Notes under the pieces: generated by a model
Told to the model about the DNA's origin: nothing
Seen by the model: the letters and a program-made list of their open reading frames with translations, nothing else
Database searches by the model: none
Part shown: positions 12,753 to 40,271 of the stretch, one piece after another
How the letters are laid out: each line of letters starts with the position of its first letter
Numbering within the stretch: position 1 is the first letter of the stretch
Made by a program: the position numbers and the translations under genes
Sequence record: MK373771.1
Strand: one strand, 5' to 3'
Length of the DNA stretch: 45,130 nucleotides
Origin: Escherichia phage vB_EcoP_R4596

Positions 12753-12816
12753 AAGCCTAGGTAATCTAGGTTTATAAGGTAGTATAGGTAATTAAGTAAA
12801 TATAGGAGATATAAAT

Positions 12817-13194
12817 ATGTCTATGGTAACTACTCTGGTATTCGTAGCTCAATACTTTCGTGGCCTGGCTAATAAGTTTAAACAGAAAGCAATCTTTGCA
12901 ATTCAAGAACGTATTAATAAAATTGAAGAAGAACAAGTAGATGTAGAGGAACATCGTAGTTCTCAGATGATTGACCTGCATAATCGTCTGTACAAAGATC
13001 GTGATGAGATGCGTCACCGTCATGCGAAGGAAGTTGAAGACATGCTTAACCGCCATGCGGAAGAACAAGCTAAGTTGGAAACCACCTTCCATGAGGATAA
13101 ACGTAGCATCGCTCTAGCACATCAAGCTGCATCGGATATCCTGAAGAGAGAGATTGTTATGCTGGAGATTGAGTTAGACAATCTTACCAAATAA
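12817..13194 (+). CDS. Hypothetical protein with hydrophobic N-terminus and charged coiled-coil region (125 aa)
   Basis: GGAGA ribosome-binding site; no family recognized. Confidence 0.55.
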   Translation: MSMVTTLVFVAQYFRGLANKFKQKAIFAIQERINKIEEEQVDVEEHRSSQMIDLHNRLYKDRDEMRHRHAKEVEDMLNRHAEEQAKLETTFHEDKRSIALAHQAASDILKREIVMLEIELDNLTK

Positions 13195-13216
13195 TTACTG
13201 GACACTATAGAACAAT
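13193..13216 (+). promoter_or_regulatory. Phage-RNAP promoter
   Basis: AATTACTGGACACTATAGAACAATAGG. Confidence 0.7.
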
Positions 13217-13356
13217 AGGTCGGCTTAGTTCGGCCTATGATTGTAAAGTGTTGAACCTTATTGTGCATCTTGCACAACCCGATACAGTATCGGGCTTTCT
13301 AGTGAGTACATGCTTGTGCTCAGTACAAAGCTAACTGACGATAGGAGACTAAATAA

Positions 13357-14163
13357 ATGGCACGTGGTGATTTTGATTTTGGTGCTCAGGTTACTAAAGC
13401 TGAAGGTAAAGTATTTAAGAACCCTGAAGTTGGTGATCATGAAGCAGTAATCTCTGGCATCATTCATGTTGGTTCCTTCCAAGATATTTTTAAGAAAGGT
13501 AATACCACTGAGGTTAAGAAGCCAGCAAACTTTGTTCTAGTTAAGATTATCCTGATGGGTGACGATGACAAGAATGAAGATGATTCTCGCATGGAACAGT
13601 GGATGGCTGTACCGCTGAAGTCTGGTGACAAGGCAACCTTGACTAAGTTCTTGAATGCAGTTGACCCCAAAGAATTGCTTGGTGGCTTCGATGACTTCAT
13701 CGGTGAATGCCTGACTGCAACCATGGTTGGTTCTGGTGATAAGAATGACGATGGCTCATTCAAGTATGTTAACTGGAAGGGTTTTGGTGGTATGCCGGAC
13801 AAGCTGAAGAAACTTGTCATTGCTCAGGTTGAAGAGGAAGGTCTGTCTATGACAGGTCATATTACCTTTGACAAGCTGACCAAAGAAATCCTTGATGACA
13901 TTCCTGCTAACTTGGTACGCCAATACTTCCTGAATGAAACCCCTCGTGGTAAGAACCTGTCTGTTGCTGGTTCTCACGTAGAAGAAATCATTAAAGCTGC
14001 TCGTGAAGAAGATCCTGAGTGGAAGAAGGCTAAGAAGAAAGATGACGAGGATGCTACTCCAGCTAATCGTAAGTCTCTGGACACTGGCGAGTCTGTTCCA
14101 CAGGAAGTGCCGGAGGCAGAGGACACTCCTGCACCGGAAATGGATGAAGACGCGGAATACTAA
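13357..14163 (+). CDS. Putative ssDNA-binding protein (gp2.5-like role inferred, 268 aa)
   Basis: Position in the replication module and acidic C-terminal tail ...PEMDEDAEY ending in an aromatic residue, as in the T7 gp2.5 and gp4 tails; no direct sequence match recalled. Confidence 0.35.
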   Translation: MARGDFDFGAQVTKAEGKVFKNPEVGDHEAVISGIIHVGSFQDIFKKGNTTEVKKPANFVLVKIILMGDDDKNEDDSRMEQWMAVPLKSGDKATLTKFLNAVDPKELLGGFDDFIGECLTATMVGSGDKNDDGSFKYVNWKGFGGMPDKLKKLVIAQVEEEGLSMTGHITFDKLTKEILDDIPANLVRQYFLNETPRGKNLSVAGSHVEEIIKAAREEDPEWKKAKKKDDEDATPANRKSLDTGESVPQEVPEAEDTPAPEMDEDAEY

Positions 14164-14169
14164 GGAGGG

Positions 14170-14391
14170 ATGATGAAGGTACAAATCGTAACCCTGCACT
14201 GCAAGAAGGGCATTACAACCCTTGGCGGAAACACTTTTCACTCCTTCTCTGAAGGGGAGACATATTCTGACCTGCACTACATCTGGCGCGATGGGCAGCA
14301 CGTGGTGAACTACAGCGACCCCGCTACAGGGAAACGCCACGGCGTATCTCTTCCGGCGCACGACATTGCTCAGGTGAACACAGTTTTATAA
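14170..14391 (+). CDS. Hypothetical protein (73 aa)
   Basis: AAGGAGGG Shine-Dalgarno; no motif recognized. Confidence 0.5.
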   Translation: MMKVQIVTLHCKKGITTLGGNTFHSFSEGETYSDLHYIWRDGQHVVNYSDPATGKRHGVSLPAHDIAQVNTVL

Positions 14392-14392
14392 A

Positions 14393-14408
14393 GTCTCACA
14401 TGTGAGAC
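14393..14408. repeat. 16-bp perfect palindrome GTCTCACATGTGAGAC (copy e)
   Basis: Read directly; 2 nt after the stop of the 14170-14391 gene and 14 nt before the promoter. Confidence 0.9.
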
Positions 14409-14422
14409 AAATCGGTGTCCAG

Positions 14423-14446
14423 TATTTACTGGACACTATAGAAGAG
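14423..14446 (+). promoter_or_regulatory. Phage-RNAP promoter
   Basis: GTATTTACTGGACACTATAGAAGAG; its upstream half lies in a 9-bp inverted repeat GTGTCCAGT / ACTGGACAC (14415-14436). Confidence 0.75.
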
Positions 14447-14495
14447 AAGAATTTTAATCGGCGATAATGCCATAACTAACAAAGGAGAATTTAAT

Positions 14496-14864
14496 ATGTT
14501 CAAGATTGAAACTATCGTAAACCGTGTTGTTAAAGGTGCTGCTCTGGTGTCCGTTGAATCTTTCATTATCGTCGATGAAGCTGATCAACTGGTAGCTGGC
14601 ACTAAGGCTTACGATACCCGTGAAGAAGCTCAGGCTAAGATTGACAGCATGGGTAACTTTGCTGCTGGTCTGGAGTTCGCTCGTGCTTGCTTCCCTGAGC
14701 AGGCTGACAAAGCACAGATTGGTAAGGCTAATATCGTAGCTGAATATCTGGATTGGGTTGCTGCTGGTAAACCAGTGAAAGAAGCTAAGGCTGAAGAAGC
14801 TGAAGCTCCTGCAGTAGAAGAAACCAAAGCAGAAGAAGCTCTGTCTGCTGAAGAAGAATTTTAA
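14496..14864 (+). CDS. Small acidic protein of unknown function (122 aa), boxed by its own promoter and terminator
   Basis: AAAGGAGA ribosome-binding site; C-terminal tail ...EAKAEEAEAPAVEETKAEEALSAEEEF ending in Phe. Confidence 0.65.
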   Translation: MFKIETIVNRVVKGAALVSVESFIIVDEADQLVAGTKAYDTREEAQAKIDSMGNFAAGLEFARACFPEQADKAQIGKANIVAEYLDWVAAGKPVKEAKAEEAEAPAVEETKAEEALSAEEEF

Positions 14865-14870
14865 TTGATG

Positions 14871-14905
14871 CCCTGTCTGCCTTAGTGTAGGCAGGGTCTT
14901 TTGTG
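14871..14905 (+). terminator. Tphi-like stem-loop terminator
   Basis: CCCTGTCTG-CCTTAGTG-TAGGCAGGG then TCTTTTGTG; covaries with the capsid terminator at 23931. Confidence 0.7.
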
Positions 14906-14928
14906 TAATAGTTATTGGAGAATGAATT

Positions 14929-15222
14929 ATGCCGACTATTGAAGAACGTTTCCTGATTCACGTAGACTTCTCACCCATACATCTTGGTTATCTTATCACT
15001 ATTCTCTTAGGAGAGGAGGTTTATCTACATAATTACCTTATACCTGAATATGTATGTTTTAGGGATAAGATACACCCGCTTACTTGGGCACAAGAGTGGC
15101 TGCGTGAACATGTGCTGAAGGAGTGGCCTACATGCGACCAAACTTCGACTTCGGAGCTACAGTATCGGAAGACAATAATCTCATCCTGTGGCCGACTGAA
15201 GGTGAGAGAATCGCTCTCATAG
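14929..15222 (+). CDS. Hypothetical protein (97 aa)
   Basis: GGAGA ribosome-binding site just after the terminator; overlaps the exonuclease start by about 90 nt in another frame. Confidence 0.35.
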   Translation: MPTIEERFLIHVDFSPIHLGYLITILLGEEVYLHNYLIPEYVCFRDKIHPLTWAQEWLREHVLKEWPTCDQTSTSELQYRKTIISSCGRLKVRESLS

Positions 15223-16160
15223 ATGCTGACATGTTACCTTATATCGTAGGGTACACAATCAGTGACATGACTTATGTACGAGCCACAACTCGTGTTAAGT
15301 CAGGACAAGTCCAATCAATCAAAGATACACCTGAGTGTAAGCAAGCATGTGACCGTGTGAACTCCTTGCTTAACTCTTGGGTGTATGCAGCAGAGTGTGA
15401 TGCAGCTAAGCTATTCATGACAAAATCAGAAGCTAACTTCCGTGTTCGCCTAGCATTCACCAAGCCTTATAAGGGTCAACGTAAGACCGAGAAGCCTCCA
15501 TTCTTCTATGAATTACGAGAGCATCTCTTAGAGGTGCATGGTGCAATCTTGGCTGATGGTGAGGAAGCAGATGACCTAATGAGCATCGCACAATGGGACA
15601 GCCATCGCCGCTTCCAGCAAGATACAGGTAACGAGTTCCCTATCGGTAGTCCAGAGCATAAAGCATTCTCTGATACTTGCATCGTTTCCTTAGATAAGGA
15701 TTTGATGATTGTTCCCGGTTGGCATCTACTGCCGGGAGGTGAGAAGAAATGGGTAGAGCCTATGGGTTGGCTTGAGCTACGCCGCAAGGCTAATGGTCAA
15801 GTGAAAGACCTTAAAGGTGCTGGCCTCATGTTCCATTATGCACAGATGATTATCGGTGATGACATAGATAATTATGCTGGCATACCTGGGCGTGGAGCTA
15901 AATATGCCTATGATCTTCTCAAAGATTGCAAGACAGAGAAAGAGTTGTACATGGCAGTGCTTGGTGCTTACAAGGCTAAGTTCGGACATGGACAAGTTAA
16001 GATTAAGAATTACCGAGGTGGTTATCGTATCGGCAAGGCTTTTGATCTCATGCTTGAATGTGGTCGCCTAGCTCACATGGCGAGATTCAAAGGTGATATC
16101 TGGAGGGCTGATAAGAATGAAATCTTATGGGGAGAAGGTGATGGATGGCTAGTAAACTAA
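15132..16160 (+). CDS. 5'-3' exonuclease (T7 gp6-like, FEN family)
   Basis: GDDIDNYAGIPGRG and AHMARFKGD match T7 gp6 GDITDGYSGIAGWG and ARILRFNEY as recalled; GAAGGAG Shine-Dalgarno 8 nt before ATG 15132 (track begins at GTG 15123). Confidence 0.8.
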   Translation: MRPNFDFGATVSEDNNLILWPTEGERIALIDADMLPYIVGYTISDMTYVRATTRVKSGQVQSIKDTPECKQACDRVNSLLNSWVYAAECDAAKLFMTKSEANFRVRLAFTKPYKGQRKTEKPPFFYELREHLLEVHGAILADGEEADDLMSIAQWDSHRRFQQDTGNEFPIGSPEHKAFSDTCIVSLDKDLMIVPGWHLLPGGEKKWVEPMGWLELRRKANGQVKDLKGAGLMFHYAQMIIGDDIDNYAGIPGRGAKYAYDLLKDCKTEKELYMAVLGAYKAKFGHGQVKIKNYRGGYRIGKAFDLMLECGRLAHMARFKGDIWRADKNEILWGEGDGWLVN

Positions 16161-16555
16161 AATCTTCAGAGGTGGCAGCTTATAAGAAAGAGCTTATGGA
16201 GAAGCAAGGTTGGAAGTGTCCTCTGTGCGGAGGCAGCCTTAAGGCAGTAAGTCCTATCAACCGTGTACTTGACCATGATCATGAGACAGGTTTCTGTCGT
16301 GCTGTTGTGTGTCGTGGCTGCAACGGTGCAGAAGGAAAGATTAAGGGTGTTATATCTGGCTACGGAAAGGCAGGTAATAACCGCTACTTCCAACTACAAT
16401 GGTTAGAACGCCTGTATAACTACTGGAAGTTGCATAGTACACCTCAGACAGATAAGTTATATCATAATCATAAAACGGAGGCAGAGAAACGAGAGGCTAA
16501 AAATCGTAAGGCTCGCCTTGCTTATGCAAGAAAGAAGGAGGTTAAGAGTGGCTAA
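16145..16555 (+). CDS. Endonuclease VII-like Holliday-junction resolvase (T4 gp49 family)
   Basis: CPLCGG...LDHDHETGFCRAVVCRGCNGAEGKIKG...LQWLERLYNYW matches the T4 endonuclease VII zinc/HNH-like core as recalled. Confidence 0.8.
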   Translation: MASKLKSSEVAAYKKELMEKQGWKCPLCGGSLKAVSPINRVLDHDHETGFCRAVVCRGCNGAEGKIKGVISGYGKAGNNRYFQLQWLERLYNYWKLHSTPQTDKLYHNHKTEAEKREAKNRKARLAYARKKEVKSG

Positions 16556-17555
16556 ACTTCGTAGCCTTTATAAAGACTCCGAGGTGCTTGATGCAATCGA
16601 GCAAGCTACCGACGAGAAAGGTAATGTTAACTATAATGAGATGGCGAAGGTTCTATCTAGCCACCCTGTGGGTAAGAAGATCACCCGTCAACTTGCTCGC
16701 TACTGGCATGGTCAATTCAAGAAGACCAAGAAGAATGGTGATTATTACCAGACTCTTCTGCAAGAGGATAAGCGTATCAAAGAAGAGCGTAAGCTCAGGA
16801 CTCCTGACCGCTACGAGGATTTGGCTATTGTACCATTGCCTGACTCGCCTCATCGAAGTGTACTGGTAATCCCTGATACTCATGCACCTTATGAGCACCC
16901 AGATACCTTAGAGTTCCTTGCAGCAGTGGCAGCACGTTATCGACCAGACACAGTGGTACATCTTGGAGATGAGGCAGATAAACATGCCCTGTCATTCCAT
17001 GATTCGGATCCAAATTTGGACAGTGCTGGCATGGAGTTAGAGAAGGCTCGTGTCTTCATGCACAAGTTGCACAAGATGTTCCCTGTGATGCGCCTGTGTC
17101 ATTCTAACCATGGCTCTATGCACTTCCGTAAGGCAAGCGCCAAGGGTATTCCAGTACAATATCTGCGTACCTACCGTGAAGTCTTCTTCCCGCAGGGAGG
17201 TGGCGACCAGTGGGACTGGCAGCATACGCATGTACTTGAGTTACCGAATGGCGAACAGGTGGCGTTCAAGCATCAACCTGCCGGCTCTGTCCTAGCAGAT
17301 GCAGCGCATGAGCGTATGAACCTTGTGTGTGGTCATCTGCATGGCAAGATGTCTGTGGAGTATGCACGTAATACCCATGAGCAGTATTGGGCTGTGCAGG
17401 GTGGCTGTCTAATTGATGAGTCATCTCGTGCATTTGCCTATGGTCGAGAGTCTAAGTACAAGCCAGCATTAGGTTGTGTGGTTATTCTGGATGGTGTGCC
17501 GCACATTGTCCCGATGCAGACCAATAGTGACAATCGCTGGATTGGTAAGATTTAG
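16548..17555 (+). CDS. Calcineurin-like metallophosphoesterase with about 100-aa N-terminal extension
   Basis: Motifs VIPDTHAP, HLGDEADK, HSNHG, CGHLHG; likely GTG 16548 start with AAGGAGG Shine-Dalgarno 7 nt upstream (track begins at 16518). Confidence 0.75.
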   Translation: MAKLRSLYKDSEVLDAIEQATDEKGNVNYNEMAKVLSSHPVGKKITRQLARYWHGQFKKTKKNGDYYQTLLQEDKRIKEERKLRTPDRYEDLAIVPLPDSPHRSVLVIPDTHAPYEHPDTLEFLAAVAARYRPDTVVHLGDEADKHALSFHDSDPNLDSAGMELEKARVFMHKLHKMFPVMRLCHSNHGSMHFRKASAKGIPVQYLRTYREVFFPQGGGDQWDWQHTHVLELPNGEQVAFKHQPAGSVLADAAHERMNLVCGHLHGKMSVEYARNTHEQYWAVQGGCLIDESSRAFAYGRESKYKPALGCVVILDGVPHIVPMQTNSDNRWIGKI

Positions 17556-17572
17556 TTGACACTATAGAACAA
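17550..17572 (+). promoter_or_regulatory. Phage-RNAP promoter, closest copy to the SP6 consensus
   Basis: ATTTAGTTGACACTATAGAACAAAGG. Confidence 0.7.
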
Positions 17573-17622
17573 AGGGTAGGTATTAGCTTGCCCTTGATTG
17601 TATAGTGAATGGAGGAATTAAT

Positions 17623-18060
17623 ATGTCACACTATGAATGTAATAAATGCCATAATCGCTATGATGATTGCACTTGTGATGCGCATAAAGATGAGAGTATT
17701 AAGCCAGAGCATCACCCTTTATGTGATTACATGTTGTCTAACTGTGTAGAGAAATGTGACTGTAAAACAGAGTGGTTTAAAGAAAGAATGGCTAAAATGG
17801 ATAAGAAGGAAGAAAAAACCAGTAATGATATGGTCACTAAACCCAAGCACTACGAGTTCTTCGATGGCGTAGAGGCAATTACTATCATCGCCCGTAGTAT
17901 GACCGAGAAGCAATTCGCGGGGTATTGCATGGGTAATGCTTTGAAGTATCGTCTGCGTGCAGGTAAGAAGTTCAATACTGAAGAAGACCTGAAGAAAGCA
18001 GACTACTACAAAGAGTTATTCCAGAAGCATCGTCACGAATGTATTGATGAGGATATTTGA
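17623..18060 (+). CDS. Cys/His-rich protein with DUF3310-like C-terminal domain
   Basis: N-terminus CNKCHNRYDDCTCDAH...CDYMLSNCVEKCDCK; C-terminal KPKHYEFFDGVEAITIIARSM...GNALKYRLRAGKK...DLKKADYY resembles DUF3310 as recalled; GGAGGA ribosome-binding site before ATG 17623. Confidence 0.5.
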   Translation: MSHYECNKCHNRYDDCTCDAHKDESIKPEHHPLCDYMLSNCVEKCDCKTEWFKERMAKMDKKEEKTSNDMVTKPKHYEFFDGVEAITIIARSMTEKQFAGYCMGNALKYRLRAGKKFNTEEDLKKADYYKELFQKHRHECIDEDI

Positions 18061-18061
18061 T

Positions 18062-19009
18062 ATGAATATCTTTGAGTTCCTAGGTCTTCCAGAAGACCAC
18101 CGCAACCACCCATTCATGCTGGTGAAGCATCGCGGTGAAGTTCCTGAGAAGAAATTAACTTTTCCATGTTATGCACAGGTGAAACGAGATGGAATATTCA
18201 GTGCTGTTGTGGTGCGCAATGATGGTGCTGTTGCCGTCTTTGGTCGTACTGGTAAGAAGCTCGCAAATGTTGAAGCCTTGGAAAAGACATTTAGTGTATT
18301 TCCTGTCGGGTTGTATCTTGGTGAGTTGCAATCTATGGCTGTTGGTGTTTATCTTGAAGCTCTGTCAGGAGTGGTAAACCCTAATCGTACAGAGCCACTT
18401 GACTTCATAGGCCAGCAGATTAAAGACAACCTGTATATCGACTTCTTCGATATGTTAACTATTAAGGCATTCCATGATGGATTCACTGATGTTTCTTATC
18501 TCAAACGTTACGATGCTTTACATCGTCGTATCGGCACTCATCTTAGCGGGTGCAACGCTATCCTTCCTATCACTCCTTGCCATAATGAGCGAGAAGTTGA
18601 AGCGTTTGCGCAAGAGCAAATAGATGCAGGACGTGAGGGTGCTGTATTCAAACTGGACTGCGATTATGAAGCAGGACACAAAGGTTATCGTCAGACTAAA
18701 GAAGTCCGTAAGGTAACTTATGACCTTACTTGTATTGGCTTTGAAGAAGGTAAAGGTAAATACAAAGGTAAGGTAGCTAACCTCATTTTCAAGTGGAAAG
18801 GGGGCAAGACAATCAAAGCTATGCTCGGTAAAGGGTGGACTCATGCAGATGCAGAACAGATGTTCCACGATATTAAACATGGCGGACGGTTGAATGTCAT
18901 TGGTAAAATCTTTGAAGTCAAAGGTCTTCAGGATTCAAGCAAGGGCAACATTCGTCTGCCCAAAGCGGGAGAATTAAGACATGACAAAGATGAACCAGAT
19001 TTCTTTTGA
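18062..19009 (+). CDS. ATP-dependent DNA ligase
   Basis: Adenylation motif AQVKRDGIF (KxDG) near the N-terminus; GAGGA ribosome-binding site; ATG 18062 (track begins at TTG 18044). Confidence 0.85.
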   Translation: MNIFEFLGLPEDHRNHPFMLVKHRGEVPEKKLTFPCYAQVKRDGIFSAVVVRNDGAVAVFGRTGKKLANVEALEKTFSVFPVGLYLGELQSMAVGVYLEALSGVVNPNRTEPLDFIGQQIKDNLYIDFFDMLTIKAFHDGFTDVSYLKRYDALHRRIGTHLSGCNAILPITPCHNEREVEAFAQEQIDAGREGAVFKLDCDYEAGHKGYRQTKEVRKVTYDLTCIGFEEGKGKYKGKVANLIFKWKGGKTIKAMLGKGWTHADAEQMFHDIKHGGRLNVIGKIFEVKGLQDSSKGNIRLPKAGELRHDKDEPDFF

Positions 19010-19196
19010 TAGCATGAAGGCAACTCGTGCAGTTGAGGTAGCAGAAGCTATCTTTGAAACTTTACCCTGCGGCATGGAAGTGCCATATACTTTACTTGCT
19101 GATGCAGAAGAACTTGGTCTTTCTGTAGAAGCTATCCAAGAGAAGGTTGACGAATTATATGGTACAGACGAAGAAGAAACCGACGATTTCATTTGA
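18981..19196 (+). CDS. Small acidic protein (71 aa)
   Basis: GGGAGA ribosome-binding site; overlaps the ligase 3' end; acidic tail ...DEEETDDFI. Confidence 0.45.
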   Translation: MTKMNQISFDSMKATRAVEVAEAIFETLPCGMEVPYTLLADAEELGLSVEAIQEKVDELYGTDEEETDDFI

Positions 19197-19325
19197 AGGA
19201 ATGGAGATGCTTGAGATGATTCTCAAGCCTTCTTCTCCGAAGGTGACTAAGACTCATGAAGAGTTAATCGTAGATGAAGTGAAGCGTTACATTATGGATT
19301 GTGTCAAGGCACAACTGGTAGTCCA

Positions 19326-19787: not shown

Positions 19788-19796
19788 GGAGGCAAT

Positions 19797-22634: not shown

Positions 22635-22640
22635 TTCAGT

Positions 22641-30787: not shown

Positions 30788-30804
30788 TGGTATACTCAAG
30801 GTTT

Positions 30805-30820
30805 GTCTCACATGTGAGAC
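30805..30820. repeat. 16-bp perfect palindrome GTCTCACATGTGAGAC (copy f)
   Basis: Read directly; between two internal virion protein genes; flanks AAGG...CCTT and a following TTTATGAAT shared with the hairpin at 12648. Confidence 0.9.
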
Positions 30821-30854
30821 ATGCCTTTATGAATGACACTGACTAGGAGGTAAC

Positions 30855-33800
30855 ATGGTTGATAGTATTAACCAAAACTGGGTGGCGGTGACTCAACGCA
30901 AGTTACCGCCTACCTTCTCTCAAATTGCTGAAGCTGAGCGTAAGGCTGAAGCCCAGAGAGCTAATGATAAAGTGTTTCAAACAGCATTAGAAAGTGAGTG
31001 GGCTTTATATGGCGGACAACGTGCCTATGAACGCCACACTACAGAGTTTGCTGAACAAGAAGGCTATGAAGTGCCTGAGTCAACTAAGGATGAGTTATCC
31101 AAGTTGTATGGGTATGAAATAGCGCAAGACATAGTTAAGAATGTAAAGTCTCCAGAAGAGTTGCAATTCCGTATGTCTAATGCTGCTGCTGATAAAGACA
31201 GAGCAGACATCTTAGCACGTAATGGTTTCACGGGTTTCAGCGCGCAGATTGCTGCTGGCATCCTTGACCCTGTAGGTTGGGCTGCATCCTTAGTGGCTGC
31301 GCCTGTAGCGGGTGCTGTCAAAGTAGGTAGGCTAGGTAGGATTATCAAGACGGCTGCCTTATCAGGTGCTGAAAATGCTGCATTAGAAGCTATACTTGCA
31401 CAAGGTGATTACCAGCGAGGGGTTGATGATGTACTGGCTGCTGCCGGATTTGGTATGATTATGGGCGGCACTATTGGTGCTGCAACCAGAGAGCGCATAG
31501 CCAGTGCTGGTTCTCGTACAGCGGCAGAACGAGCAGATGCTGTAGTTGATGACTTGGACACTGTAGTAAAAGGTGCTGATGAATTTGACTCGTCTGCGGC
31601 TCGTGCTGTACGTGAAGCTATGGAATATGACGCGTATATGGCAGCGCGTAATTACGAACCACTTCGTGCAAGAGAGGTAGATGCAGACATGGCGATTCTG
31701 TCTCACACAGACAATTTGAAAGCCAATGCATCGGTAAGGATGAGTGCTAGTGAGAAAGGGCAACTGAAGAAGCAGATACGTCAGCTTGAAGCAGAAGCAG
31801 CAACACTTAAAGGGAAGAAGATAGACACTGTAGCGGAAGCTGCGGCTGCTAAGGGTGCACCTAAATCTGCTGCTGACAGATTAGATTTGGATGTTCAGAA
31901 GAAAGCATTAGCACGTAGATTTGATGAACCACTGGCAGACTTACAAGCGCGTCTTGATGAGTTGAATGCTAAATTGTCTCGTGTAAACAATGTAGGCAAA
32001 GCCAAGGAAGAGCTTAAGAGATTCTCATCGCTATCTCGTGAAGAGCAAATAAAGGAGTTAGGTCTAGACGCACCAGTGCGCAAGGTAGAGATGACCCGTG
32101 CCGTGCGAGATGCAATTGACGCAATCCGTGCCGAGCGTAAGAAGACGCCTACCGAAATACATGCTGAACAAGTCGCAGAAGATGCAATTAAGCAAAGGGC
32201 AGACGACTCTGTTGGTGCTAAACGTGTTGAAGGTTCAGAGATTGCAGGTGAACAGTTTGACCTATCTAAAAACATGGAAGAACTTATGGATGACTTGGCA
32301 CGAGAAGCATACCAGTCAGAGGTGCGGCCTATTAATCTTAAGGGTTTAGGTTCAGTGTCTTCTGTGATTCTTAACTCAGAGAATCCTGTGTTCCGAGGCC
32401 TAGGTCTTCGTCTGCTTGAAAATGCTCAAGGTGGTGCATATCAAGGTAAGACAGCTTCTATCTTATCAGATGTGTATGGCAACCTTATTCGTCATGCAGA
32501 ACGTAACAGATACAATGATGGCTTCTCTCAGTTCATCAAAGATAATAACCTACGTGCGGTAGATTATCTTAACCCTGCAACGACAAGGGATTTCAATAAT
32601 CAGATTTATACAGCAATTGTTCGTGGCATACCAGAAGATACACCTCGTGGTGTTAAACTGGCAGCCGAAGGTATTGCAGATAAGCTCAAGAAAGCACTGG
32701 AGATTCGTAAGCAAGCAGGTGAGCGAGGCTTCGAGGATGTGCAATCTGCTAAAGATTATATTCCCGTTATCTACGATGGTATCAAGATCACAGAGGCAGT
32801 TAACAAGTTAGGTAGTAGTGAAGCTGTCATTCACTTGCTATCTAAAGGGTATCAGACAGGCAAGTACAAACTTGGCAAGAAAGCTGCTGATGCACTAGCC
32901 AAAGTTCAGTATATTCGCGCATCTGACTCCACCCTCTCTAGTCGTGTTGCATTCGATAGAGTAGTATCCCAGCAGCAGCAGGCTCAATTGATTGAGGATC
33001 TGAAGAGAGCAGGAGTACCAGACCATATCATTGATAATTTCATTGAAGGTACGGAATTAGCAGAAATGGCTGAATCGGTATCCAATCGAGCTAAAGCTAG
33101 CATGGGTATTAATACGCAAGCCGAATATGGCGGTTTGAAGGTGCAGGATTTGCTTAATACAAACGTAGGCGAGCTAGCTGAGAACTACGGCAAAGAGGCA
33201 GCAGGCGGTGCTGCATTAGCTGCCATGGGTTTCCCCACTCGCCAGTCTGTGCTGAATGCGATAGATGCCGCAGAACGCGCAGGTCGTAATATGGCGGGGT
33301 CAAATGCTAAGGCAATCAAACAGCTTAGAGCTGAGGCAGAAATGCTCAGAGATGCCGTTAAGCTCATTTACGGCAACACTATTGACGCCGACCCTAACTC
33401 TGGAATTGTCAGAGGCACTCGACGTGTCCGTGAGATTACAGGCTTGTTACGATTGGGTCAAATGGGCTTCGCTCAGATACCAGAACTGGCACGTGCAATC
33501 TCTAAGATGGGATTAGGTACTGTGCTGAAGTCCATACCTGCCACGAAGTTCTTACGTTCAAGGGCGGCTCGTAAGGGAGGAACAGCTCAAGGTGAATTAC
33601 TTGAACCTGAACTGCGAGAAATGGAGGAACTCTTAGGCTATATCGGGGAAGATAACTGGCTTACAGGGTGGAACGTCCGTCATGATGAGTTCGGAGAAAC
33701 TGCTGATAACCTAGGTAAGCTGTCTGCTATTATTGATAACGGATTAGCTATGGGTAGTAGAATCAACACAATACTCTCTGGATTTAAAGCAGTACAAGGT

Positions 33801-34658
33801 GGTTCAGAGAAAATTGTAGCTCGCTCTATCAATAAGAGATTAAAGCAGCACTTGATGGGTGAGAGACAATTACCTAAAGCAGACCTTGAAGAAGTAGGCC
33901 TAAGTGAAGATGTCATGAAAAGACTTAAGCGTCACTTTGATGACAACCCTCTGTACGCTGAGTACAATGGAGAAAAAGTTCGTATGCTGAACTTTGATGC
34001 TATGGAGCCAGACCTGAGAGAGACAGTGGGTGTTGCTGTGCGAAGAATGTCAGGCCGTCTTATTCAACGTAACTTCATTGGCGATGAAGGTATCTGGATG
34101 AATAAATGGTGGGGCAAGGCATTAACGCAGTTTAAGTCATTCTCTATTGTCTCTATTGAGAAACAGCTAATCCATGATTTACGAGGTGATAAGATTCAGG
34201 CTGCACAGATACTTGCATGGTCTACTTTACTAGGTTATGCATCTTATGCACTACAGATGCAGATGCAAGCGATTGGTAGGGAGGATAGAGACAAGTTCTT
34301 GAGGGATAAGTTTGACACACAGAACATCGCTATGGGTGTCTTTAATAAACTTCCACAAGTTGCAGGCTTTGGTTTAGCTGGTGATGCTTTGGCAACCTTT
34401 GGCCTAATGCCAGACTCCATGATGCAAGCACCGGGACGCATGGGTTTCCGTCAGCAAGGCTTTGGGGATTTGGTAGCAGGTGCTGGTGTAATAAGTGATA
34501 CAGTTAATTTGTCACAAGCACTGGTTAAGTATGCCAGTGGAGACGATGATGTCTCTACGAGGCAGTTGGTAGACAAGGTTCGTCGCCTTGTTCCTTTGGC
34601 AAATACTATTGGTGTGGGTCAGATGACTAAAGCCAGTGTAGATTTATTGGAGGATTGA
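30855..34658 (+). CDS. Large internal virion protein (gp16-like, 1267 aa)
   Basis: Size and position match T7 gp16; GGAGG ribosome-binding site. Confidence 0.8.
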   Translation: MVDSINQNWVAVTQRKLPPTFSQIAEAERKAEAQRANDKVFQTALESEWALYGGQRAYERHTTEFAEQEGYEVPESTKDELSKLYGYEIAQDIVKNVKSPEELQFRMSNAAADKDRADILARNGFTGFSAQIAAGILDPVGWAASLVAAPVAGAVKVGRLGRIIKTAALSGAENAALEAILAQGDYQRGVDDVLAAAGFGMIMGGTIGAATRERIASAGSRTAAERADAVVDDLDTVVKGADEFDSSAARAVREAMEYDAYMAARNYEPLRAREVDADMAILSHTDNLKANASVRMSASEKGQLKKQIRQLEAEAATLKGKKIDTVAEAAAAKGAPKSAADRLDLDVQKKALARRFDEPLADLQARLDELNAKLSRVNNVGKAKEELKRFSSLSREEQIKELGLDAPVRKVEMTRAVRDAIDAIRAERKKTPTEIHAEQVAEDAIKQRADDSVGAKRVEGSEIAGEQFDLSKNMEELMDDLAREAYQSEVRPINLKGLGSVSSVILNSENPVFRGLGLRLLENAQGGAYQGKTASILSDVYGNLIRHAERNRYNDGFSQFIKDNNLRAVDYLNPATTRDFNNQIYTAIVRGIPEDTPRGVKLAAEGIADKLKKALEIRKQAGERGFEDVQSAKDYIPVIYDGIKITEAVNKLGSSEAVIHLLSKGYQTGKYKLGKKAADALAKVQYIRASDSTLSSRVAFDRVVSQQQQAQLIEDLKRAGVPDHIIDNFIEGTELAEMAESVSNRAKASMGINTQAEYGGLKVQDLLNTNVGELAENYGKEAAGGAALAAMGFPTRQSVLNAIDAAERAGRNMAGSNAKAIKQLRAEAEMLRDAVKLIYGNTIDADPNSGIVRGTRRVREITGLLRLGQMGFAQIPELARAISKMGLGTVLKSIPATKFLRSRAARKGGTAQGELLEPELREMEELLGYIGEDNWLTGWNVRHDEFGETADNLGKLSAIIDNGLAMGSRINTILSGFKAVQGGSEKIVARSINKRLKQHLMGERQLPKADLEEVGLSEDVMKRLKRHFDDNPLYAEYNGEKVRMLNFDAMEPDLRETVGVAVRRMSGRLIQRNFIGDEGIWMNKWWGKALTQFKSFSIVSIEKQLIHDLRGDKIQAAQILAWSTLLGYASYALQMQMQAIGREDRDKFLRDKFDTQNIAMGVFNKLPQVAGFGLAGDALATFGLMPDSMMQAPGRMGFRQQGFGDLVAGAGVISDTVNLSQALVKYASGDDDVSTRQLVDKVRRLVPLANTIGVGQMTKASVDLLED

Positions 34659-37600
34659 TGAGTTATACATATACAGACCATGTAGCTAATGGCTCACAGG
34701 TTACATTCCCTTTTCGTTTTGCAGGCAGAGATAAGGCATACATTAGTGCGACAGATGTCCAAGTGGGTTTTGTAGAAGCAGGCACTTGGCTGCCAGCAAC
34801 AGGTTGGACGCTAAGTGGCACCAATCAGATCACTTTCTTAACCCCACCGACAGAAGGTAAACAAATACGAATCAGACGTATTGTAGATAAAATAAACCCA
34901 TATGCTTACTTCGAGCGGGGTAATGTTTTAGATATTAACTCTTTAAATAACTCATTCATTAAGAACCTGCAAGTCAGTCAAGAAATCCTTGATGGCTTCT
35001 TCCCAGAAGGTTTCTACTTCAAGACAGACTTAGACATGGGTGGTCATAAGATTATAAACCTACATGAGGGTTCTGAGTCAGGTGATGCTGTAAATTATGA
35101 TCAGTTTAAAGAGTTATCAGACCGCGTTAATGAGATTGAATCAGATTTAACAGGTTTGTCTCACAGAACAGTACCTATGTACTATATCGCAACTGGTGGA
35201 GAGTCACGTTGGGAGATCGGTCACTGGACTTTCGACGCTGCAATATTGTTTATTAATGGTGTATTCCAGAACCAAAACCTAGGAGCTTTTACCATCAGCA
35301 ACAACGGTTTTAACTTTGCAGAACCATTGCAGAAGGGGGATGAAGTATATGCCCTTGTAGGAAGCCGCATTGCAGCACCCGATGAGTATGTAACAATCTC
35401 TGACTTGAAAGACCCAGATAAAGCATGGAGGCTAATTGGACGTAAGTACCCATTTGCGACAGATGGAACTTTTATGTCAAAAGTGGTACATGATGTAGAC
35501 TACTCCAATATCTTCATTGGAGCATCAGGACTTAGTCAAGGCTTCTGTATTGTAGACACTCCGCAAGGTGCTCGCATGTTCTTCCATCAACCTATCCCAA
35601 GCACTAATAAGGTTCGTTTCGTTGAAACAACCTTTAACCCTGAAGGGGATAATGAAAATCCTTCTGTTATTTCATTCAGCCAGGAACTGGATGATATTGG
35701 ACACCAGACTGTGTGTGGTGTATATGAGGCGGGGGGTGTGCGTTTGTACACCTTGAGTGCAGATGAAAAATCTTATTATATCATAGATTGGTTAGGTAAT
35801 AATACGTCTAATACACATATGCGTAAGGTGCAGATCCCTACGGAGGGTATCTACTCTAAGGACCTATTTGTCTCAGTGGGCATGTCAGAAGATACTAAAA
35901 CGCTGGTATTCCATGCAACCACCAATACTCAGGCTTTTGGTAACAAGGATGATGCGAGAGCTATTTACCTCTTCGATAGAAAAACATTGGATTCAACCTC
36001 AACTAGAGGTCTTAAGCGTAGATTCGAAGTAGGAGCACCTGCTGCACCAGATATGGCCTTCCAAGGGGTTGCTTGTGATGACCGCTTCTTGTATATATAT
36101 CATGGATATAATGGTGTCCTGCTGTCTCACAAGATCTCCGTCTTCACCCTCTCAGGGGAGCATGTACGGGATATTCCCGTTGATAGTGTGCGTGTAAAAT
36201 ATGGAGAAAGGATGTATGGTGACGCAGATTTAGGATACCCTGTGTTGCAGGAACCGGAAGGTTTGGCAATGTATAAAGGGAAACTTTATATGTTGTGCAT
36301 GGATTTCTGGTACAAAAATGCAAGTGTAGTTACTTTCGCTGGAAGGACTTTTGCTACAAGAAAATCTTCAGCGTTTTCTGGGTACAGCCCATTACAATCC
36401 TCATACTGGACACCTACGAACCTAATACCACCTACGGGTGCACCAGAGTATAACAAGACTGCTACTTATTCCTGCTCTAATGCTACTAAGCTCAGTAAAG
36501 CTATTGTTAGCTTAGAAATAGATGATGGCACAGGCTTCCCTGCAAGTGTTGGGTGTTCTTTGCCAGAGAGTAGCGCCAGTGTATACCTAAACAACCGAGC
36601 GATGAATATGGCTATTGGCCCGAATGAAAACTTCCAGTTTGGGGTATTTCACCAGAACCTACAGTCATACAAAAACCTGTTACAGCTCAATAGAGAGAAC
36701 CCAAATACGGATGGATCAGCGGCTGTGTGGAGGTTGTTCGGAGGTGCGTTCACAGATGACATTCAGAATGAAAGATTTGTTCAGATTAAGCATAGACTTA
36801 ATCCCACACAAGATGCCATGGAGCTTCGTGCGGATGTTGACCTTACGAGCGGTGGTGGGATTAACTTGTATTCTATGAACGACTCTGCCTCTCCTGGTCG
36901 AGTAAGGCTATATTGTACTGACGGGTATTCTTATTGGTCAGCTCTACTGAGTCCTGCATCCCCATCTTTTCACCCTGATCAAGATAAGACTCTAAACTTA
37001 GGTACAGCAAACAACCGTTGGAACCTAGTCCATTGTCAAGGTATCCGTATCATCTCTAACGACGAGTTACAGAAGCAAGTCTTTCTTGAAACTACCCGTA
37101 AAAAAGGTGCACTACAGATCTCCACTTCCGGCAATCTAGGGGTGTGGGATAGTAGCGCAGGTACTTATGTTGTGGCAACCAGACCTGATGGTACAGGCTT
37201 TTCACAGGTAGAGATGAGCTTCAAAGGTGATGTTTTTCCTGAAATAAATAATACTTACAATTTAGGTCGTGAGAATAAGGCATGGGCTAATGCCTACTTT
37301 CAAAACGCACCGACTGTTGTCTGTGATGCCAGACTTAAAACAGATGCTAGGGAGTTAACAGCCGCAGAGAAATCCGCATTCTTAGAGATCTCTAAACTTC
37401 CGGCAGTTTGGCAATGGCTTGCTAAACTGGAAGTAGAAGGAGAGGATGCCCGCTTACACTCTGGATGTACTGTCCAAGCTGCTATCTCGGTTATGGAGAA
37501 ACATGGCCTAGATTGGACTAAGTATAGTGCTTTCTGTTATGACAAATGGGATGCCAAGGAGGCTGTCTATGATATAGTGGATGGTAAGGCTATCCTTGTT

Positions 37601-37741
37601 GAAGAGGCAGTTGAGGCTGGCGACCGTTATCGTCTTCGTAGAGAAGAGCTGATGTGGTGGTGCATGAAGGCACAGAATGCTTGGATTGAATCTATTGAGG
37701 GGAGGCTGGCGAAATTAGAAGATAAACTCAAGGAGGTGTAA
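34658..37741 (+). CDS. Tail fiber with T7 gp17-like N-terminal anchor and C-terminal intramolecular chaperone-like (peptidase S74-type) domain
   Basis: N-terminus YTYTDHVANGSQVTFPFRF...ISATDVQV...IRIRRIV follows the T7 gp17 adaptor pattern; C-terminal CDARLKTDARELTAAEKSAFLEISKL resembles the SDxRxK autoprocessing motif. Confidence 0.8.
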   Translation: MSYTYTDHVANGSQVTFPFRFAGRDKAYISATDVQVGFVEAGTWLPATGWTLSGTNQITFLTPPTEGKQIRIRRIVDKINPYAYFERGNVLDINSLNNSFIKNLQVSQEILDGFFPEGFYFKTDLDMGGHKIINLHEGSESGDAVNYDQFKELSDRVNEIESDLTGLSHRTVPMYYIATGGESRWEIGHWTFDAAILFINGVFQNQNLGAFTISNNGFNFAEPLQKGDEVYALVGSRIAAPDEYVTISDLKDPDKAWRLIGRKYPFATDGTFMSKVVHDVDYSNIFIGASGLSQGFCIVDTPQGARMFFHQPIPSTNKVRFVETTFNPEGDNENPSVISFSQELDDIGHQTVCGVYEAGGVRLYTLSADEKSYYIIDWLGNNTSNTHMRKVQIPTEGIYSKDLFVSVGMSEDTKTLVFHATTNTQAFGNKDDARAIYLFDRKTLDSTSTRGLKRRFEVGAPAAPDMAFQGVACDDRFLYIYHGYNGVLLSHKISVFTLSGEHVRDIPVDSVRVKYGERMYGDADLGYPVLQEPEGLAMYKGKLYMLCMDFWYKNASVVTFAGRTFATRKSSAFSGYSPLQSSYWTPTNLIPPTGAPEYNKTATYSCSNATKLSKAIVSLEIDDGTGFPASVGCSLPESSASVYLNNRAMNMAIGPNENFQFGVFHQNLQSYKNLLQLNRENPNTDGSAAVWRLFGGAFTDDIQNERFVQIKHRLNPTQDAMELRADVDLTSGGGINLYSMNDSASPGRVRLYCTDGYSYWSALLSPASPSFHPDQDKTLNLGTANNRWNLVHCQGIRIISNDELQKQVFLETTRKKGALQISTSGNLGVWDSSAGTYVVATRPDGTGFSQVEMSFKGDVFPEINNTYNLGRENKAWANAYFQNAPTVVCDARLKTDARELTAAEKSAFLEISKLPAVWQWLAKLEVEGEDARLHSGCTVQAAISVMEKHGLDWTKYSAFCYDKWDAKEAVYDIVDGKAILVEEAVEAGDRYRLRREELMWWCMKAQNAWIESIEGRLAKLEDKLKEV

Positions 37742-37935
37742 TGATAAACTCCGAACTGGTAGATAATGGTGTGAAGCTGGCGCCACCTGCATTAGTCTCA
37801 GGTGGGTACTTCCTCGGTATCAGTTGGGACAATTGGGTACTGATAGCAACATTCATTTATACAGTGTTGCAGATTGGCGATTGGTTCTATACTAAATATA
37901 CAATATGGAGGAATAAGCATGAGCGTGCACAATAA
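37741..37935 (+). CDS. Class II holin (T7 gp17.5-like)
   Basis: DNWVLIATFIYTVLQIGDWFYTK resembles T7 gp17.5 NEWFYVAAIAYTVVQIGAKVVDK as recalled; follows the tail fiber gene. Confidence 0.7.
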   Translation: MINSELVDNGVKLAPPALVSGGYFLGISWDNWVLIATFIYTVLQIGDWFYTKYTIWRNKHERAQ

Positions 37936-38218
37936 ACATGCAGCCACAGAGGATGAAGTAGGCATCCTTCATGGCGCTATTACGAAGATGTTTAATAAGA
38001 AAGCACAGGCTATACTGGACACTATAGAAGAAGACCCTGCTTCTGCTATGCACTTAGTGTCAGGTAAGGATATTGGAGCCATGTGTAAGTGGGTTTTAGA
38101 TAATGGCATTACTGCAACCCCTGCTGCACAGCAGGAAGAATCTAAGTTGTCTAAGCGTCTCAAGGCTATCAGAGAGGCGTCCAGTGGTAAGATCATTCAG
38201 TTTACTAAGGAGGATTAA
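37919..38218 (+). CDS. Terminase small subunit (gp18-like)
   Basis: Position immediately upstream of and overlapping terminase large; GGAGGA ribosome-binding site before ATG 37919. Confidence 0.55.
   Translation: MSVHNKHAATEDEVGILHGAITKMFNKKAQAILDTIEEDPASAMHLVSGKDIGAMCKWVLDNGITATPAAQQEESKLSKRLKAIREASSGKIIQFTKED
38010..38032 (+). promoter_or_regulatory. Phage-RNAP promoter inside the terminase small gene
   Basis: CTATACTGGACACTATAGAAGAAG. Confidence 0.6.
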
Positions 38219-40113
38219 TGGCTAAGGCAAGAGAATCACAAGCGGAGGCTCTTGCCAGATGGGAGATGCTACACGAGTTACAGCAGACCTTCCCTTATAC
38301 GGCAGAAGGTTTGCTTCTCTTTGCTGATACAGTTATTCATAATTTAATTGCAGGTAGTCCTCATCTGATTCGTATGCAGGCAGACATCTTGAAGTTCCTA
38401 TTCTATGGGCACAAGTATCGCCTCATCGAAGCGCCCCGTGGTATCGCTAAAACTACGCTGGCAGCAATCTATACGGTGTTCCGTATCATTCATGAGCCTC
38501 ATAAGCGTATCATGGTTGTATCCCAAAACGCCAAGCGAGCAGAGGAAATTGCAGGTTGGGTGGTCAAAATCTTCCGAGGATTGGACTTCCTAGAGTTTAT
38601 GCTGCCAGACATCTACGCTGGCGACCGTGCATCCGTTAAGGCATTCGAGATTCACTATACACTGCGTGGAAGCGACAAGTCCCCTTCTGTATCCTGCTAC
38701 TCTATTGAAGCAGGTATGCAGGGTGCTCGTGCAGACATCATTCTAGCAGATGACGTTGAATCTATGCAGAATGCGCGTACCGCAGCAGGCCGTGCATTAC
38801 TTGAGGAATTGACCAAGGAATTTGAATCTATCAACCAGTTTGGTGATATCATCTACCTTGGTACTCCTCAGAACGTCAACTCAATCTATAATAACCTTCC
38901 GGCTCGTGGCTATTCCGTGCGTATCTGGACGGCTCGCTATCCTTCTGTAGAGCAGGAGCAATGCTATGGTGACTTTCTTGCACCTATGATCGTGCAAGAT
39001 ATGAAGGATAACCCAGCCTTGCGAACAGGTTATGGCTTAGATGGTAACAGCGGAGCACCTTGTGCCCCTGAGATGTATGACGATGACGTACTGATTGAGA
39101 AGGAAATATCTCAGGGTGCTGCTAAGTTCCAGCTTCAGTTCATGCTTAACACTCGCATGATGGATGCGGATAGATACCCATTACGCATAAACAATCTAAT
39201 CTTCACCTCGTTTGGTACAGAGGAAGTTCCTGTGATGCCTACTTGGAGTAATGACTCCATCAACATCATTGGTGATGCGCCTAAGTATGGTAACAAGCCT
39301 ACAGATTTCATGTACAGACCTGTAGCTCGCCCATACGAATGGGGTGCTGTCTCCCGCAAGATTATGTATATTGACCCTGCTGGTGGCGGTAAGAACGGAG
39401 ATGAAACGGGTGTAGCCATCGTATTCCTGCATGGCACGTTCATTTATGTGTATCAGTGCTTTGGTGTACCTGGCGGATACCGAGAATCGTCCCTGAATCG
39501 CATTGTGCAGGCCGCAAAGCAGGCAGGGGTTAAAGAGGTATTCATTGAGAAAAACTTTGGTCATGGCGCGTTTGAGGCCGTTATAAAGCCATACTTTGAA
39601 CGAGAATGGCCTGTGACTATTGAAGAGGATTATGCCACTGGTCAGAAAGAACTCCGTATCATTGAGACACTGGAGCCGCTGATGACTGCGCATAGGCTTA
39701 TCTTCAATGCTGAGATGGTCAAGTCGGATTTCGCTTCAGTACAGAATTACCCTCTGGAATTGCGGATGTCTTATAGTTTGTTCCACCAAATGTCGAACAT
39801 CACTATTGAGAAGAACAGCCTTAGGCATGATGACCGCTTAGACGCTCTGTATGGCGCTGTGCGTCAATTAACTTCCCAGATAGACTATGACGAGGTTACT
39901 CGAATTAATCGCCTCAGAGCGCAGGAGATGCGCGATTATATACAGGCGATGAATACACCTAAACTTCGTCGGGCTATGCTGTACGGCGATTATGGTGATG
40001 AGCGAAGAACAACCAACACCTCCTTAGCGATGCAGCAGCGGGTTTACGGTCAGAATTGGAGGAGCCGCTCTGGGTCTAGAAATACACTTTCCTCAAGGAT
40101 TTCAAGGATTTAG
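38218..40113 (+). CDS. Terminase large subunit (gp19-like, 631 aa)
   Basis: Size and position; ATPase-like segments (IILADDVESM Walker B-like); AAGGAGG ribosome-binding site. Confidence 0.88.
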   Translation: MAKARESQAEALARWEMLHELQQTFPYTAEGLLLFADTVIHNLIAGSPHLIRMQADILKFLFYGHKYRLIEAPRGIAKTTLAAIYTVFRIIHEPHKRIMVVSQNAKRAEEIAGWVVKIFRGLDFLEFMLPDIYAGDRASVKAFEIHYTLRGSDKSPSVSCYSIEAGMQGARADIILADDVESMQNARTAAGRALLEELTKEFESINQFGDIIYLGTPQNVNSIYNNLPARGYSVRIWTARYPSVEQEQCYGDFLAPMIVQDMKDNPALRTGYGLDGNSGAPCAPEMYDDDVLIEKEISQGAAKFQLQFMLNTRMMDADRYPLRINNLIFTSFGTEEVPVMPTWSNDSINIIGDAPKYGNKPTDFMYRPVARPYEWGAVSRKIMYIDPAGGGKNGDETGVAIVFLHGTFIYVYQCFGVPGGYRESSLNRIVQAAKQAGVKEVFIEKNFGHGAFEAVIKPYFEREWPVTIEEDYATGQKELRIIETLEPLMTAHRLIFNAEMVKSDFASVQNYPLELRMSYSLFHQMSNITIEKNSLRHDDRLDALYGAVRQLTSQIDYDEVTRINRLRAQEMRDYIQAMNTPKLRRAMLYGDYGDERRTTNTSLAMQQRVYGQNWRSRSGSRNTLSSRISRI

Positions 40114-40137
40114 TATTTACTGGACACTATAGGAGGA
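40114..40137 (+). promoter_or_regulatory. Phage-RNAP promoter followed by AT-rich TAGGT-repeat region
   Basis: GTATTTACTGGACACTATAGGAGGAAG. Confidence 0.75.
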
Positions 40138-40271
40138 AGACCAAGAGAGTAAAAGGAATATTATAGGATAATATAGGATTACCTAGGTTATATAGGTGTA
40201 CCTTAGTATGGGTGTACTCCTGTACACCCTATTCTTACTTACTATTTACTTATACGTATAAGGAGTATTAG

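Follow-up and report, generated by a model that had tools for sequence, protein, structure and literature searches.

In bacteriophage T7, the primary replication origin is formed by the promoters phi1.1A and phi1.1B plus an AT-rich region of 61 bp, and it holds a single site for the gene 4 primase. T7 also carries short repeat arrays, SRL and SRR, next to its terminal repeats. Phased repeats are known from leader RNAs as well: TRAP is associated with (G/U)AG repeats in the leaders of the Bacillus trp operon and trpG, at a period of 5-6 nt, and HutP with UAG repeats at a period of 7. The primary and secondary origins of T7 comprise phi1.1A/B, phiOR and phi6.5 (PMC8373140). Here we describe phased TAGG repeat arrays that follow phage RNA polymerase promoters in Escherichia phage vB_EcoP_R4596 (sequence record MK373771.1). 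The stretch analysed, referred to below as the window, is 45,130 bp long and is a complete K1-5/K1E/SP6-like podovirus genome (Autographiviridae, Molineuxvirinae, Vectrevirus) with direct terminal repeats of 285 bp (1-285 and 44846-45130) and all of its long open reading frames on the + strand. The Escherichia phages vB_EcoP-101117UKE2 and CC1 are 98% identical to it over the stretches tested. Phages of the SP6/K1-5 group, from which SP6 RNA polymerase derives, are widely used as candidates for therapy.

Phased TAGG arrays behind three phage promoters

Three tracts in the window are copies of one promoter-coupled, non-coding module, in which a promoter is followed by 4-8 phased units and, at the first and third locus, by a stem-loop and a pyrimidine-rich tail. 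They lie downstream of the genes for RNA polymerase (locus 1), DNA polymerase (locus 2) and the large terminase subunit (locus 3). An earlier note on this DNA had pointed to AT-rich TAGGT tracts behind two promoters and in the centre of an origin-like region, and had read them as T7-type secondary origins or, alternatively, as long structured 5' leaders. The strings that it quoted are present, CCTAGGTAATCTAGGTTTATAAGGTAGTATAGGTAATT at 12756-12793 and ATAGGATTACCTAGGTTATATAGGTG at 40173-40198, as is the related third tract at 6157-6220. The single span of 12753-40270 given for them measures how far apart two of the three short elements lie.

TAGGT alone is mildly enriched in the window (132 matches versus 88 expected). 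Chains of at least four WAGG units spaced 8-11 nt apart are found exactly three times when both strands are searched, always on the + strand, at 6157-6220, 12748-12788 and 40153-40198, with seven, five and five units, respectively. All three begin no more than 30 nt from the +1 of a phage promoter. Across 300 dinucleotide shuffles of the genome, chains of five or more units never appeared, and shuffling each tract locally reached the observed chain length in no more than 0.05% of trials. An unbiased scan of the window for all 3- to 5-mers recovered nothing besides these arrays and the left-end array of CTTAGT units (see below). The tracts are 28-31% GC compared to 45% for the genome, which places them in the lowest 0.8-1.5% of windows, and they have 0-4 C residues per 60 nt (lowest 0.01-0.6%). 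Nearly all of their G residues reside inside AGG cores.

Pooling copies from related phages gives a unit of (T/C/A)AGG(T/A)(A/T), with T following the AGG core in 56% of units and A in 32%. Neighbouring units are 9 or 10 nt apart in 174 of 200 intervals (mean 9.7) and are separated by spacers of 5-7 nt. A missing unit leaves a gap of 19-22 nt. The units resemble the promoter start region TATAGG (positions -4 to +3), and six of the nine copies of TATAGG that occur outside promoters on the + strand of the window fall within arrays.

SP6-type promoters matching ATTTACYGGACASTATAG occur 13 times in the window (0.14 expected), and those immediately upstream of the arrays, at 6114, 12730 and 40115, match the consensus exactly. 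The remaining ten promoters have no array and are followed by ordinary leaders, mostly with a 5' stem-loop. Genomes carry two or three arrays, with no tie to highly expressed genes. On the minus strand, three copies of TAGGT 8-10 nt apart are present at 36411-36434, inside a coding region (34655-37741). These are probably a chance occurrence because there are only three units and no promoter. The literature searched yielded no account of the TAGG repeats, although an earlier mention is possible in the founding SP6 and K1-5 genome papers, which lay outside that search.

The components of the three loci are as follows.

6096-6111, no strand assigned: perfect palindrome of 16 bp, GTCTCACATGTGAGAC, shortly before twin promoter 1; one of eight copies in the window
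6114-6131, + strand: phage promoter 1 of the twin pair, ATTTACCGGACACTATAG, with its +1 at 6131
6137-6149, + strand: small 5' stem-loop CCGTCGGAGACGG, the sole consensus RNA helix at locus 1, with compensatory changes across genera
6157-6220, + strand: array 1, seven units (AAGGG, AAAGGA, AAAGGA, ATAGGT, AAAGGT, ATAGGT, CTAGGA)
6221-6256, + strand: pyrimidine-rich arm TACCTATTACCTTCTTCCTTCCTCTTATTACC, which can pair with the units of array 1 to give a long imperfect hairpin
6279-6294, no strand assigned: the 16-bp palindrome again, shortly before twin promoter 2
6300-6317, + strand: phage promoter 2 of the twin pair, with gene 8 downstream
12656-12707, + strand: T7 R1.1-like RNase III-type hairpin CTCAAGGTCACTTACGAGTGGCCTTTATGAATAAC, immediately upstream of the next promoter; context rather than part of the array
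12730-12747, + strand: phage promoter before array 2
12748-12810, + strand: array 2, five units (12748-12788) spaced 10, 9, 9 and 9 nt, then one degenerate unit
40115-40132, + strand: phage promoter directly after the stop codon of the large terminase gene (38218-40113)
40153-40207, + strand: array 3, five units spaced 11, 10, 10 and 9 nt, closed by CCTTAGT
40210-40229, + strand: GC-rich stem-loop GGGTGTACTCCTGTACACCC, scored terminator-like by a scan
40230-40262, + strand: pyrimidine- and T-rich tail, followed by a Shine-Dalgarno sequence and the open reading frame 40272-40553

Locus 1 follows the RNA polymerase gene (3395-6022) and its terminator. Its order is palindrome, promoter, stem-loop, array, pyrimidine arm, palindrome, second promoter and gene 8 (6348-6476), a homologue of T7 gene 1.1 (51% identity, Pfam PF08200). 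Array 1 has spacings of 11, 9, 10, 9, 9 and 10 nt and is 75% purine and 3% C. Since the second promoter comes after it, array 1 is the leader of no gene. The 12-mer TACCTATTACCT occurs twice here, once at the start of the pyrimidine arm (6221-6232) and once between the early terminator and the first palindrome (6060-6071), a stretch that is highly conserved across genera.

Locus 2 has no positional counterpart in T7. The hairpin preceding its promoter is approximately 80% identical to the T7 R1.1 RNase III site (fold z = -4.9). Array 2 continues in register into TATAGGAG at 12801-12808, which is the Shine-Dalgarno sequence of open reading frame 12817-13194, a homologue of K1-5 gp15.

At locus 3, the open reading frame 40272-40553 encodes a member of the gp41 family (PHROG 2725). 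These proteins have about 93 amino acids, often occur as two or three tandem paralogues (40272-40553 and 40571-40858 in the window) and share invariant TG, N, SGK and W residues; the PHROG is mislabelled 'acetyl-CoA acetyltransferase'. In nearly every annotated relative examined, the family directly follows the post-terminase array, and it supplies the first annotated gene after the terminase in PP1, phD2B, Era103 and phiA318. The locus 3 stem-loop keeps its position in every lineage, each with a sequence of its own.

Conservation in related phages

The module of promoter, array, stem-loop and pyrimidine-rich tail is retained after the RNA polymerase and large terminase genes in six genera of Molineuxvirinae. 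The earlier note had named a lack of conservation as grounds for abandoning its origin reading; the tracts are kept in relatives, so that ground falls away. Arrays 1 and 2 are present in K1-5 and K1E, the latter also having array 3. SP6, which belongs to another genus, carries arrays at loci 1 and 3 with different spacers and the same cores and phase, and its locus 2 leader is near-identical to that of the window. Array 2 is confined to Vectrevirus and SP6: PP1 and pKV lack it, and phD2B has just a vestige. At the post-polymerase locus, the order of terminator, palindrome, promoter, small hairpin, array, pyrimidine arm, second promoter and gene 1.1 homologue is kept.

The IMG/VR contigs that supplied twenty distinct post-terminase leaders include those of Klebsiella, Pectobacterium and Lelliottia phages, which differ in promoter specificity. 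All 20 leaders have four to eight phased units, a lineage-specific stem-loop and a pyrimidine tract. In their alignment, the AGG cores and the CTTAGT are at least 90% conserved, and the spacers vary. Close relatives differ by small TA indels and (TA)n expansions. Every array found in relatives begins within about 30 nt of a +1 and has the same orientation relative to transcription, and none is located away from a promoter. A direct IMG/VR scan for TAGGTA...AGGTA...AGGTA was swamped by collagen-like GGT coding repeats and microsatellites and recovered one relevant locus.

A terminase profile search extended the comparison to phages with only 50-68% identity to the window in that protein. The Erwinia phage Era103 has AGGTAGG-type units at both loci. 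Its post-terminase array (40241-40437) has been expanded to 22 AGG units, in that a 29-nt block mirroring promoter-proximal sequence is repeated about seven times in tandem. Era103 also has an exact tandem array at 13562-13662, with about 6.5 copies of the 16-nt unit AGGTTATAAGGCTGTG, downstream of its DNA polymerase gene at roughly the site of array 2. In the Vibrio phage phiA318 (Colwellvirinae), TAGAGC units recur every 9-10 nt between twin post-polymerase promoters and again after the terminase gene. One uncultured lineage uses TA(A)GAGCGGC at both loci, a GC-rich lineage uses YAGTRG at both loci in arrays that are not AT-rich, and further distant phages have TAGAGAGTA units at a spacing of 9 nt.

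The units of these lineages (AGGTA, TAGAGC, YAGTRG and TAAGAGAGT) are the same at both loci within one genome, and each lineage's unit looks like the 3' half of its cognate promoter. Unit number ranges from 4 to 22 with the phase kept. From these comparisons, layout and phase are conserved over at least two subfamilies, with a motif that is specific to the lineage and co-varies between the loci of one genome.

Possible roles of the arrays

The comparison of these loci with T7 origins made in the earlier note stands in part. The tracts are tied to promoters, AT-rich in this genome and, for two of the three, located at T7 origin positions. As in T7, an RNA polymerase promoter directly precedes an AT-rich non-coding tract and the polymerase gene is followed by a pair of promoters. 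Array 1 is located between the two, ahead of the gene 1.1 homologue, matching phi1.1A/B, and array 3 comes directly after the large terminase gene, like phiOR. The locus 2 order of R1.1-like hairpin, promoter, AT-rich tract and gene is likewise that of T7. It also counts in favour that array 1 serves no gene as a leader, that each genome has only two or three copies, and that the tracts rank among the window's weakest duplexes and its stretches poorest in C. By analogy, the module may be the SP6-group form of the T7 arrangement of replication promoter plus AT-rich tract, with candidate origins at 6.1, 12.8 and 40.1 kb. We place this reading first among those considered and hold it tentatively.

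The course of events that we infer for such an origin begins with phage RNA polymerase transcribing from the promoter into an easily opened stretch. The purine-rich, C-poor transcript would be unable to fold on itself and would tend to remain annealed to the template. The polymerase might be slowed or halted at the stem-loop, allowing the RNA 3' end to be taken over by DNA polymerase, and the helicase-primase could load onto the displaced TAGG-bearing strand. The reader of the phased motif might be a component specific to the phage, for instance its polymerase or replisome.

Several observations weigh against this assignment. A scan of T7 origins reveals no phased unit like the one repeated here every 9-10 nt, and no stem-loop and pyrimidine tail follow the tract there as they do here. 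Array 1 fills the slot of T7 R1.1 instead of that of the AT-rich tract downstream of phi1.1B. GC-rich relatives have lost the AT-richness and kept the phased motif, and conservation of a motif implies a specific reader rather than generic melting. The origin idea leaves unexplained the phasing of the units, the stem-loop and tail, and the fact that it is a motif, not a composition, that is conserved and co-varies; all are as expected of sites read by a phage-specific factor in early transcription. GC skew is uniformly positive and monotonic across the genome, and therefore uninformative for an origin. Whereas origins have been mapped in T7, no replication mapping for the SP6/K1-5 group was found in the literature reached; for this group, the module offers concrete positions.

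Properties of the DNA and of its hybrid with RNA were also compared. When the stability of the RNA:DNA hybrid is set against that of the duplex with nearest-neighbour parameters, the leaders that carry arrays take the first three places among the ten strict-consensus promoters listed, and the best window in the genome is the 60 nt after 6114. SP6 and K1-5 have the same pattern. However, the arrays of pKV-BS375, PP1 and phD2B are unexceptional, and by the same measure hybrids are unfavourable at the true T7 phi1.1B origin. Generic R-loop thermodynamics was therefore rejected as the conserved property, which further counts against the origin assignment. Intrinsic curvature was rejected as inconsistent: in a wedge model, tract 1 is at the 19th percentile and tracts 2 and 3 are only moderately high, at about the 2nd.

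SP6 primase recognises GCA (PMC2034472), so the array unit is not a primase site, and an array of primase recognition sites was discarded. There is one GCA across the three loci, at 6266 on the displaced strand of locus 1, which recalls the single primase site of the T7 origin. Loci 2 and 3 have none, another point that does not favour origins there.

Alternatively, the arrays may act in RNA, as phased single-stranded sites for a phage-specific oligomeric RNA-binding factor (a phage protein or RNA-exit elements of the polymerase) that, when bound, controls the terminator-like stem-loop of loci 1 and 3 or, at locus 2, covers the Shine-Dalgarno sequence. This reading comes close behind that of an origin, with which it is not mutually exclusive, and we regard it as possible but somewhat doubtful. 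It agrees with the placement of all arrays on the transcribed strand, starting near +1, and with their predicted lack of structure and paucity of C, which would leave them accessible. Arrays 1 and 3 have a stem-loop and pyrimidine-rich tail in every lineage; the stem-loop of locus 3 scores as terminator-like, and its phiA318 counterpart has been predicted to be a terminator (PMC4099482). Array 2 runs in register into the gene 15 Shine-Dalgarno sequence. Co-evolution with a reader encoded by the phage would be expected to give units that differ by lineage and match between the two loci of one genome, as they do here, although recombination between loci that share a promoter could also make them alike. 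Unit number varies from 4 to 22 without loss of phase. Against these points, the U tracts are interrupted and termination by the phage polymerase there is only predicted, no alternative antiterminator pairing has been demonstrated, and no candidate protein has been found. The gp41-family protein was considered as the reader and set aside: it has no Pfam hit, a low-confidence AlphaFold model (pLDDT 70), no Foldseek match below E = 0.3 and no sequence match in the PDB.

The nearest described parallels in RNA are the TRAP and HutP leaders, which likewise present short, phased, single-stranded, purine-rich UAG units in a 5' leader by a terminator hairpin or overlapping a Shine-Dalgarno sequence. 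The period of 9-10 nt found here is unlike that of known repeat-binding attenuator proteins, the spacers are 5-7 nt rather than 2-4 nt, another host and another polymerase are involved, and a search for a cognate ring protein gave no candidate. The resemblance is one of logic only and not of membership. Sponge RNAs with multiple GGA motifs, such as CsrB and RsmZ, are similar in that a possible short transcript would expose many AGG(A) motifs and have a terminator-like end. The GGA core of these RNAs is not shared, since A follows AGG in only 32% of units and relatives use AGAGC or AGTAG.

Structured leaders, the second suggestion of the earlier note, and RNase III-type processing hairpins fare poorly. 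Array 1 and its pyrimidine arm do form a hairpin of about 100 nt, with two helices and an internal loop, that folds in every lineage and occupies the T7 R1.1 slot between twin promoters. The only Rfam near-hits of array 1 are to models of long-hairpin microRNA precursors, far below threshold. A lineage-specific covariation between array 1 and its arm was rejected because cognate and non-cognate arms are about equally stable (-20.0 versus -19.3 kcal/mol); the pairing is thus generic purine/pyrimidine complementarity. The repeats of the other two arrays are predicted to be unstructured, with single-sequence fold z-scores of -0.1 for leader 3 and -1.3 for leader 2, and an average near -1 across 20 relatives. 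RNAalifold predicts no consensus pairs in the repeats at locus 3 or locus 1, with covariation confined to the small 5' hairpin of locus 1. True T7-type RNase III hairpins, with the signature CAAGG...GCCTTTATGA, are present elsewhere in the window (12656-12707, 30795-30840, 9850-9885 and 8640-8675). The arrays are unlike them: the signature is absent from all arrays, including the hairpin of array 1. Processing or stabilising hairpins are an unlikely explanation. Searches of Rfam with the arrays gave no hit at the gathering score, and permissive E-values added only hits far below threshold. A possible upstream reading frame in the locus 3 hairpin (MGVLLYTLF..., 17 codons, start at 40208) was discarded because its length and its frame relative to gene 41 vary and several relatives lack the start codon. 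No conserved RNA structure, Rfam family or upstream reading frame accounts for the repeats.

In double-stranded DNA, the units might serve as iteron-like sites, or as an anisotropically flexible stretch, for a phage or host protein that binds or wraps DNA in a role other than initiation, for example promoter clearance or loading of topoisomerase or nucleoid proteins. Units recur every 9-10 bp (mean 9.7), close to one helical turn, and the 19-22 bp left by a missing unit is close to two; CCTAGG and AGGTATACCT palindromes occur at unit junctions. However, a period of 9.7 bp drifts by about 25 degrees per unit from the B-DNA repeat, curvature is neither extreme nor consistent, and all copies share one orientation relative to transcription, with none away from a promoter. 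No known host factor has a fitting consensus, and a conserved host factor would need no lineage-specific motifs. Iteron origins have direct repeats of roughly 17-22 bp and a Rep initiator nearby; here the units are 9-10 bp with a core of 4-6 bp, and no Rep-like gene is adjacent. We consider such a DNA element improbable. Equally little weight is given to the idea that the arrays have no dedicated function, having arisen by slippage or tandem duplication from the promoter start region (TATAGG plus initially transcribed sequence), and are tolerated in non-coding leaders. Their likeness to positions -4 to +3, the concentration of stray TATAGG copies in arrays, the Era103 block copied from promoter-proximal sequence and the TA indels and (TA)n expansions between close relatives fit such a derivation. 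It is harder to reconcile with AGG cores that are conserved while spacers drift, with ten other promoters in the window that lack an array, and with arrays kept in phase at two loci over at least two subfamilies whose terminases are 50-60% identical and whose units differ.

A motif that changes by lineage while its phase and position stay fixed points to a sequence-specific reader in early transcription by single-subunit RNA polymerase. It is conceivable, if somewhat unlikely, that the arrays represent a previously unrecognised promoter-proximal class of 'phased start-site repeats' in SP6-like and related T7-supergroup phages. Their lineage-specific unit, copying the 3' half of the cognate promoter, would be read in early elongation by a phage-specific factor. 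This factor could be the polymerase, re-engaging promoter-like sequence in nascent RNA or in the non-template strand, or else a new protein that binds nucleic acids as an oligomer. Such a reader could set pausing or termination at the stem-loop and thereby switch the promoter between a short primer or regulatory RNA and downstream expression. If the arrays do control pausing or termination, they would be relevant to expression systems derived from SP6 and K1-5 and to phage engineering, because they are located at module boundaries, which are natural cloning junctions.

Other repeats in the genome

A second kind of array is located just inside the left terminal repeat, where about ten CTTAG(T/G) units recur every 10-13 bp (338-462). 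Further copies are interleaved with sigma70-like early promoters at 606-678, 777-782 and 44652-44690. The CTTAGT array is kept in K1-5, SP6 and PP1, and phD2B has CATGATG units instead. With short, degenerate, non-coding units spaced about 10-13 bp apart, it is the analogue of T7 SRL and SRR. The TAGG arrays are unlike SRL and SRR in having another unit, in not being at a genome end and in being coupled to promoters, although one CCTTAGT closes array 3. A link between the TAGG arrays and the left-end array was rejected since the two vary independently, phD2B having its CATGATG left end and retaining its TAGG arrays.

A perfect 16-bp palindrome, GTCTCACRTGTGAGAC (GTCTAACACGTTAGAC at 610), is present in eight copies versus 0.02 expected, at 610-625, 6096-6111, 6279-6294, 7079-7094, 8647-8662, 9858-9873, 14393-14408 and 30805-30820. 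Some copies lie just upstream of phage promoters, and one is inside the primase-helicase gene. In the RNase III-type hairpins at 30795-30840, 9850-9885 and 8640-8675 (z from -2.2 to -6.6), the palindrome forms the upper stem. All Molineuxvirinae examined have copies at syntenic positions, and T7 has none. Most of those genomes carry the variant GTCCAACGTGTTGGAC at most of their copies, a pattern that looks like concerted change within each genome.

The heptamer ATCTGTT, the class II pause/termination sequence of T7, begins at the last base of the left terminal repeat (285-291). The same junction is kept in SP6 and phD2B, and reads ATCTGTC in PP1.

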